Source of the DNA: a virus
Taxonomy: Duplodnaviria; Heunggongvirae; Uroviricota; Caudoviricetes
Strand: one strand, 5' to 3'
Virus record (IMG/VR): IMGVR_UViG_2718218305_000006
DNA: 64,000 bases
Position numbers: made by a program
In this document: positions 63,001 through 64,000 of the stretch, in pieces
Position numbering within the stretch: position 1 is the first letter of the stretch
How the letters are laid out: each line of letters begins with the position of its first letter

Positions 63001-64000
63001 GGTGAAAAGTATTTGCGAGCATATGTGGTCATGTGGGTCTGGGTTAAGTTATAGACATCAACCTTAAATACTTCGCCAAAACTCCCTTGTCCTAAACTGC
63101 GACCATCTTTAAGTAAATAATTACCGCACCGATCCACGGCGCCCCCTTAACTCTCAGTAATGGATTGATAAGACTGGAAAAACATGCATTACCTCCTTTT
63201 ATACACGTTTGCTATTTTTATTGCAATGCCTCACCTGTGGGCACTTAGAAAGGTGAGATTCTGATGAGTCTTTAACTGATTGAATTCGTTCCAATGTGGG
63301 AATCCCACATCGGGAGAACATTACCAATAGGGATAAAAACGATTTGTGGGAAAAGGGGAGTTAAGTAAAATTGCTGCGGGTGCTTGAGGCTATCTGTCTC
63401 AGGCATGAACACCAAAAGGCAGATAGAGAAAAGCCCCAGTTAACATTACGCGTCCGGCAAGACGCTTAACATTAATCTGAGGCCATATCTATGCTCTACA
63501 CACGTAGGTTAGCCTCTTACGTGCCGAAAGGCAAGGAGAAGCAGGCTATGAAGCAGTAAAAGGCGATGCTAATCGCCCTGATCGTCATCTGTTTAACCGT
63601 CATTGTGACGGCACTGGTAACGAGGAAAGACCTCTGCGAGGTACGAATCCGAACCGGCCAGACGGAGGTCGCTGTCTTCACAGCTTACGAACCTGAGGAG
63701 TAAGAGACCTGGCGGGGGAGAAATCCCTCGCCACCTCTGATGTGTCAGGCATCCTCAACGCACCCCACTTAACTCGCTTCGGCGGTTTTTTGTTGTTTAT
63801 TTTCGGTGAGCGTGATGCATCTGGTTGTACCGATGTGGCTGGCTGATTCTGTTATTCAGGTGGTTTATTGCTGTTGATTGGCATGTCTTCACGGCTAGAA
63901 TCGAGGCTCTTAAGTAGCGCGCAGGGATAAGAGGGATGGCCCCCATAAGGGGAGGTGTTTATAGTTCATGGGATTTTTGTTATGAACGATAAGGAATTAA

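Follow-up and report, generated by a model that had tools for sequence, protein, structure and literature searches.

A prophage hokD-type toxin gene with a stop at codon 4 in an otherwise complete hok/sok locus

The disrupted hok gene and its surroundings

The viral record IMGVR_UViG_2718218305_000006 (Caudoviricetes), of which a stretch of 64,000 nucleotides, called the window here, was analyzed, carries two prophages, each with a gene for a toxin of the Hok family. The copy in the second prophage (copy 2) reads ATG AAG CAG TAA on the plus strand, so that the fourth codon of hok is a premature stop, as the original prediction, made from the sequence alone, had claimed. The thymine that creates the TAA lies at 63557 and represents a C>T transition (CAA>TAA, Gln4>stop), while the next in-frame ATG begins at 63566, leaving a gap of 6 nt between stop and ATG; the positions first given for these two features, 63556 and 63565, were each one base low. 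From this ATG a 45-aa open reading frame (ORF) remains, which corresponds to Hok residues 7-51 (MLIALIVICLTVIVTALVTRKDLCEVRIRTGQTEVAVFTAYEPEE). For the 30-nt hok pattern, 0 matches are expected in shuffled sequence.

Copy 2 is of the hokD (relF) type. With CAA restored at codon 4, the encoded protein has exactly the sequence of the 51-aa HokD (HOKD_ECOLI cluster), and intact orthologous alleles are named hokD by PGAP. The locus lies in the early region of a lambdoid prophage, with a divergent Ser/Thr kinase/PP2C phosphatase pair upstream and DUF968, rusA and Q-type antiterminator genes downstream. Apart from the stop it is, on homology and predicted folding, by which its promoters and RNA ends are placed, a complete hokD-type hok/sok locus, a toxin-antitoxin (TA) system of type I (Table 1). 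The Rfam family RF01794, a hok-leader family that bears the name 'sok', matches 63378-63553 on the plus strand, that is, in hok sense, with 117.1 bits (gathering score 59) over model positions 1-157 of 157, which identifies a structured hok-family mRNA leader.

The minimum-free-energy (MFE) fold of the full-length hok mRNA is -161 kcal/mol, and in it the 5' end of the molecule pairs with the 3' end, GGGUGCUUGAGG with CCUCAACGCACCC at 63753-63765, a predicted pairing that reproduces the fold-back inhibition (fbi) arrangement typical of hok mRNAs. Removal of the 3' 40 nt causes the 5' end to refold into a local hairpin, and the textbook tac-ucb pairing was not reproduced in the MFE folds of this 3'-trimmed mRNA. 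The hok start region (63543-63557) is engaged in a long-range stem with 63671-63686, where the C>T change turns a C-G into a U-G pair at a cost of ~2 kcal/mol and leaves the predicted fold unchanged.

The mok leader ORF is in frame with hok in both copies of the window, and because of this the single stop truncates both genes of copy 2, hok at its codon 4 and mok at its codon 23. The copies differ here by two compensating indels, which alter the Mok peptide and preserve the frame; many database Hok representatives are in-frame Mok-Hok fusions. On the opposite strand, the predicted Sok RNA, folded as a 73-nt stretch (-28.6 kcal/mol, z = -5.24), starts with a 16-nt free 5' tail that is complementary to the mok start region; a long terminator hairpin and a U-run follow. 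Together with a putative promoter, all the parts of an antisense Sok are present as predicted elements. In a promoter/terminator consensus scan, the promoters of hok and Sok and the terminators all went uncalled, and their placement rests on homology and folding.

Table 1. Positions of the hok/mok/sok elements of copy 2 in the window
Feature	Position	Strand	Basis and remarks
Imperfect palindrome, module common to both copies	63291-63313	.	Sequence and allele alignment
Putative hok/mok promoter: -35 TTTGTG/TTGTGG (~63343-63349), -10 TAAAAT (63366-63371)	63343-63371	+	Sequence; 7 nt upstream of Rfam model start
hok/mok mRNA, ~414 nt, from GGGUGCUUGAGG to terminator hairpin and T-run (63771-63791)	63378-63791	+	Rfam and fold
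5' element (tac side), first 12 nt, GGGUGCUUGAGG	63378-63389	+	Pairs with 63753-63765 in MFE fold
Sok antisense RNA, ~70 nt, predicted ends	63430-63499	-	Sequence and fold
mok leader ORF, 22 codons; Shine-Dalgarno (SD) sequence GAGG at 63479-63482	63491-63559	+	In frame with hok; ended by the same TAA
Putative Sok promoter: -35 TTGCCT (63534-63529), 17-nt spacer, -10 TAACCT (63511-63506)	63506-63534	-	Sequence
hok SD sequence AAGGAG	63533-63538	+	Sequence; 9 nt upstream of hok ATG; complement overlaps Sok -35
hok start codon, three codons, then stop	63548-63559	+	Sequence; C>T at 63557
Hairpin GGCGAU-GCUA-AUCGCC, sequestering A and U of AUG 63566	63562-63577	+	Fold; alone -9.5 kcal/mol, z = -4.05
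Remaining 45-aa ORF	63566-63703	+	'Hok/Gef family protein' WP_044703989.1 per PGAP in Balcarce_24.2
Second private substitution, ATA>ATT, synonymous Ile19	63604	+	Allele alignment
fbi element CCTCAACGCACCC	63753-63765	+	MFE pairing; conserved in copy 1 and all compared alleles

This predicted layout is that of the hok/mok/sok system of R1, with its mRNA of ~400 nt, fold-back, mok leader ORF and Sok of ~65-70 nt. In R1, mok is required for hok translation, and Sok has a single-stranded 5' tail and a promoter that overlaps the hok SD sequence. The putative Sok promoter of copy 2 matches that of R1 (TTGCGC-17-TATCCT) in layout. The R1 mok is out of frame with hok, unlike that of copy 2, which is in frame as in mokC/hokC. 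In K-12, hokD stands at the end of the Qin prophage and has lost its upstream mok/sok leader, whereas copy 2 keeps a full leader together with Sok and fbi and is interrupted at codon 4. The relBE-adjacent context of one further hok locus (L009) agrees with this K-12 setting.

The normal operation of such loci has been established for hok/sok of R1 and hokW/sokW of prophage Sp5, and is applied here by homology. The ~414-nt mRNA would remain inert while its 5' end is bound to the 3' fbi element, until slow 3' trimming activates it; Sok RNA would pair with the mok initiation region and direct the mRNA to decay, and upon loss of Sok, mok and hok would be translated and the 51-aa Hok would depolarise the inner membrane. 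In copy 2, ribosomes starting at the mok AUG (63491) would halt at 63557-63559 after 22 residues, and those starting at the hok AUG (63548) after three, releasing the tripeptide MKQ. No Hok would be produced, while the hok mRNA and Sok RNA would still be transcribed; with Sok, promoters, fold-back element and terminator untouched, the locus would be effectively antitoxin-only.

Allele comparison and the age of the lesion

Alleles were compared in a population set of 5,426 complete E. coli genomes, surveyed by exact 37-mers. Over 521 nt, the sole 100% match in this set is O157:H7 Balcarce_24.2; it is followed at 98.7% by matches whose annotation is an intact hokD. The alleles of O157:H7 YB14-1 and O103:H2 12009 have a leader identical to that of copy 2, but carry CAA, while the 3' untranslated region (UTR) and downstream flank of copy 2 are identical to an allele found in 49 records with intact hokD. 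As judged from these shared segments, the copy 2 locus is a recombinant mosaic. Only two changes are private to it, the nonsense C>T at 63557 and a synonymous A>T at 63604. Comparison with hok alleles of other genomes, which had been proposed along with the original prediction, shows that the nearest alleles read CAA and that the TAA recurs elsewhere.

Two further readings of these differences were considered and rejected. Five extra 3'-UTR differences from the nearest allele might have accumulated after inactivation, but the segment is 100% identical to the 49 intact-hokD records. Two private substitutions in 290 bp are not a significant excess, given that the flanking 4.3 kb shows ~3 differences/kb against the same relative. 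The lesion is, by this comparison, young: one synonymous change aside, the remainder of the locus matches intact alleles exactly.

An imperfect palindrome with 11-nt arms and one mismatch (CCAATGTGGGAATCCCACATCGG) lies upstream of the hok promoter, and the counterpart in copy 1 is a perfect 24-nt palindrome (11323-11346) that includes GAATTC. It had been described as a degenerate leader palindrome and set beside the stop codon. The palindrome is real and does contain one mismatch, but it is situated ~65-85 nt upstream of the hok transcript start, outside the leader and the transcript, and lends no support to inactivation. Because it is identical in the hok-intact relatives YB14-1 and O103:H2 12009, it is not a sign of decay; the locus of the APEC O1-type allele described below has none. 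A compensatory pair distinguishes the arms of one copy from those of the other (ATATGGG/CCCATAT versus ATGTGGG/CCCACAT), an indication of a functional site, possibly a conserved protein-binding site or a hairpin.

The window and Balcarce_24.2 (NZ_CP076245.1) show 8 differences over 53-64 kb, and the allele is inherited along with the prophage region that the two have in common. The integrase end at ~51.9-52.9 kb is ~16% diverged, and left of 51.9 kb the two are not collinear. The Balcarce_24.2 prophage is integrated at ompW, whereas at this place on the left the window has a second prophage instead of ompW, an arrangement that BLAST found in no complete RefSeq E. coli genome. The two prophages of the window look to be in tandem, or the integration module to have been swapped. 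Because the window and Balcarce_24.2 differ yet both carry the allele, TAA is present in at least two genomes.

These comparisons also bear on the concern, raised at the outset, that the stop is a base-call or assembly error and that the gene truly reads CAA and is intact. For the matching public genome, PacBio RS II reads were assembled with HGAP3, followed by two rounds of polishing but none with short reads (PMC8553066), which leaves some room for such an error. The window is however separate from that assembly, as the differences between them attest, and has the identical TAA allele, and the same C>T is found in 7 other complete genomes on a different allelic background. PacBio consensus errors are, moreover, mainly homopolymer indels rather than substitutions. 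With the allele in a second genome and the mutation in seven more, the concern is not supported, and an error of this kind is extremely unlikely.

The seven genomes carry a prophage allele of the APEC O1 type (WP_000903685.1), which has the same codon-4 CAA>TAA, an intact leader and a 45-aa remainder annotated as Hok/Gef. It differs from copy 2 by Cys15>Gly and by many leader and 3'-UTR changes, and it is flanked by queH and doc, whereas copy 2 is flanked by the kinase/phosphatase pair. This comparison of alleles points to an independent mutation, with at least two origins of the TAA, or to short-patch gene conversion.

In all, the 37-mer with Gln4 CAA>TAA occurs in 8 of the 5,426 genomes, at 9 places, and the region with CAA in ~3,100 genomes. 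Other lesions were sought in the same way. Gln3 CAG>TAG was found in 2 genomes, Arg33 CGA>TGA in 7 and a change of the start codon from ATG to ACG in 5, while Arg35 CGA>TGA and Gln38 CAG>TAG were found in 0. The stops at codons 3, 4 and 33 and the start-codon mutant jointly affect ~0.4% of complete E. coli genomes. The databases contain further hokD lesions, among them the in-frame loss of 5 aa from the transmembrane segment, deletions at the N-terminus, and one deletion that removes the SD sequence together with the first six codons. It has been reported that internal stops occur in 2.6% of unique hok coding sequences (CDS), that hok is enriched in prophages, and that a stop-containing Hok R1 construct is non-toxic (10.1101/2025.08.07.668861). 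The frequency of ~0.4% illustrates the loss of chromosomal hok copies and fits earlier reports of frequently inactive chromosomal hok loci.

Loss of function or a shortened toxin

Copy 2 is most probably a prophage toxin gene of the hokD type that has recently lost its function, because mok and hok are both truncated, the closest alleles carry CAA, and nonsense and start-codon alleles of a comparable kind occur at scattered places in the hokD of other genomes. Among the latter, the codon-33 allele, for which PGAP annotates a 32-aa stump, cannot leave a toxin.

Several observations weigh against this reading. The 45-aa remnant keeps 41 of the 42 positions of the Pfam HOK_GEF profile (PF01848; profile positions 2-42) and scores 82.2 bits, versus 82.9 bits for the CAA-reverted 51-aa protein (cut-off 22), so that the membrane helix and the conserved LCE...AYE periplasmic part of the Hok/Gef domain are both there. 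Apart from the stop, the features of the locus are undecayed. As the TAA is only 6 nt upstream of the in-frame AUG, restart by a terminating ribosome is physically possible, and such a ribosome would already have melted the hairpin that covers the AUG, which makes a degree of reinitiation conceivable. A low dose is sufficient for the action of Hok toxins. In addition, the independent APEC O1-type TAA allele keeps the 45-aa ORF open in 7 genomes, although for an ORF of 45 codons this is weak evidence.

In a coupled two-cistron arrangement of this kind, ribosomes would terminate at UAA 63557-63559 and restart at AUG 63566, and the resulting Hok(7-51) would insert into the membrane and kill. The whole 45-codon frame, the Pfam domain complete but for one position, and the short distance from stop to AUG are compatible with it; and, as the fold geometry implies, the hairpin would open under the terminating ribosome. 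Other natural lesions, among them the ACG start, the codon-3 TAG and a small deletion, spare precisely this ORF, whose 45-aa product is called with identical sequence on 624 contigs. This count was considered as a sign of a selected short form and rejected, being biased by ascertainment, since the exact sequence arises only from N-terminal lesions. Stops at codon 33 are, moreover, about as common as those at codon 4. In GenBank draft and long-read assemblies (loci L010 and L012-L015), a -1 frameshift is common within the AAAA run at hok codons 4-5, but RefSeq complete genomes contained no match for it; a homopolymer sequencing error may lie behind it and lead gene callers to the 45-aa ORF.

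The start region itself also argues against a restart. The only SD-like sequence, AAGG, ends 2 nt before AUG 63566, which is too close, and the true hok SD sequence is 28 nt away. In the full-length fold the AUG has an unpaired probability of 0.00-0.03, which means that it is paired with a probability above 0.97 in the free mRNA. Moreover, the product would be without Lys2 and Lys5. Of 82 Hok relatives drawn from 1.84 billion representative proteins, every intact one, down to ~35% identity, has 1-3 Lys/Arg in the six residues before the helix, and the few relatives without basic residues there are scrambled or frameshifted sequences. Around the helix of Hok(7-51), four Lys/Arg follow and none precede, from which the positive-inside rule predicts that insertion would be inverted or would fail, so that the C-terminal part would end up on the wrong side. 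The corresponding part of Gef and HokB is periplasmic and disulfide-dependent. Literature searches returned nothing relevant on N-terminally truncated Hok or on reinitiation in hok.

Accordingly, copy 2 has no uninterrupted ORF of ~50 aa with a basic N-terminal tail, and because of the stop at codon 4 and a remnant without the basic tail it is classed as a disrupted allele of the family and not as a functional member. Of the two outcomes first envisaged, an inactivated toxin and a 45-aa product initiated at the internal ATG, the former is the better supported, while the latter, with no properly spaced SD sequence, a hairpin over its AUG and no basic tail, is unlikely, as is the coupled restart as a whole. 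A variant in which lesions of codons 1-6 (TAA4, TAG3, ATG>ACG) are not null, a tail-less 45-aa Hok being made at low level from AUG 63566, through termination-reinitiation after the mok leader peptide, as an attenuated toxin, is quite unlikely; if true, the membrane toxin would be weaker or differently oriented and easier for lysogens to tolerate.

Loss of the toxin would leave Sok behind, and it could be asked whether an antitoxin-only remnant is under selection, with Sok kept to neutralise the hok mRNAs of other prophages or plasmids (anti-addiction). The predicted Sok promoter, 5' tail and terminator are intact, and up to 10 hok-like places per genome occur in these genomes. However, several positions distinguish the predicted Sok 5' tail of copy 2, UGUAGAGCAUAGAUAU, from the tail predicted for copy 1, GUGACGAGCAUAUAGG, and cross-reaction is not obvious; the Sok antitoxins of the two copies may, as their tails suggest, not cross-react. 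Besides, with a lesion this recent, retention of the locus cannot be read as a sign of selection, and the allele is rare. Such retention by selection is very unlikely, and simple recent loss of function is preferred here as well.

A close described counterpart is hokW-sokW of the Stx2 prophage Sp5 in O157:H7 Sakai, likewise a hok/sok locus in a lambdoid prophage of enterohaemorrhagic E. coli (EHEC) and of the same leader family. It is a working type I TA system that speeds lysis and phage release after mitomycin C, and HokW, a close relative of the copy 2 protein, is 44% identical to Hok R1 (PMC8621323). Intact HokD and HokW are toxic (10.1101/2025.08.07.668861; PMC8621323). HokW is an intact protein of 51 aa with a somewhat different C-terminus, whereas copy 2 cannot make a full-length toxin and, because of this, would not contribute to induction-linked lysis; it probably no longer adds the Hok-assisted early lysis described for Sp5, while its Sok RNA is presumably still expressed.

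None of this departs from known biology: EHEC-prophage hok/sok loci and disrupted chromosomal hok genes have been described, and RefSeq already contains both this allele and that of the APEC O1 type, each with an annotated remnant, PGAP having already called the 45-aa remainder in Balcarce_24.2 a Hok/Gef protein. A correction of the annotation follows, in that the 45-aa RefSeq 'Hok/Gef family protein' is most likely the tail of a nonsense-disrupted hokD.

The intact copy and other features of the window

Copy 1 of hok (11539-11694) is intact, with CAA at codon 4. Its locus (11392-11800) encodes the 51-aa Hok and a 70-aa in-frame Mok-Hok fusion, and RF01794 matches its leader at 11392-11541 on the plus strand with 104 bits over the whole model. 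The leader of copy 1 is that of hokW-sokW from Sp5, and YO-351, a primer published for that system, matches copy 1 over the hok-homologous part of the primer (PMC8621323). That the rest of copy 2 matches the intact copy, as had been noted, holds for the CDS, where 4 of 156 nt differ, at 63557 (nonsense), 63569 (synonymous Leu), 63597 (Thr17 versus Ile17) and 63604 (synonymous Ile). It does not hold for the leaders, where divergence is much greater and an indel of 21-22 nt occurs; over an alignment of ~600 nt, column identity averages 85%.

Within the disrupted copy, the Tyr48 codon TAC with the following G (TACG, 63686-63689) is kept. It has been reported that hokD mRNA is subject to A-to-I editing by TadA at the equivalent Tyr>Cys position (10.1101/2025.08.07.668861). 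The Ser/Thr protein kinase gene that adjoins copy 2 occupies 62343-63137 on the minus strand, with the overlapping PP2C phosphatase gene beside it. The same pair is annotated by PGAP in Balcarce_24.2, YB14-1 and O103:H2 12009, and it may be a prophage-encoded phage-exclusion kinase module.

Each prophage also carries one gene for the small RNA (sRNA) DicF, at 4223-4274 and 55021-55072, both on the minus strand, with Rfam scores of 76.7 and 75 bits, respectively; in a related record, dicB is annotated beside the second. The late region of prophage 1 (16168-16779) contains two tRNA genes and the sRNA STnc100 (175 bits), and in the same cluster, on the opposite strand, the anti-GcvB sRNA AgvB scores 56.6 bits, just at threshold. 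No stx genes are found at this position, and the cluster is followed by an ORF for a 636-aa SASA/NanS-like esterase. An IS3-family element (20668-21881, minus strand) with two overlapping transposase ORFs is inserted in the lysis/late region of prophage 1, and its ALIL frameshift pseudoknot lies at 21484-21600.

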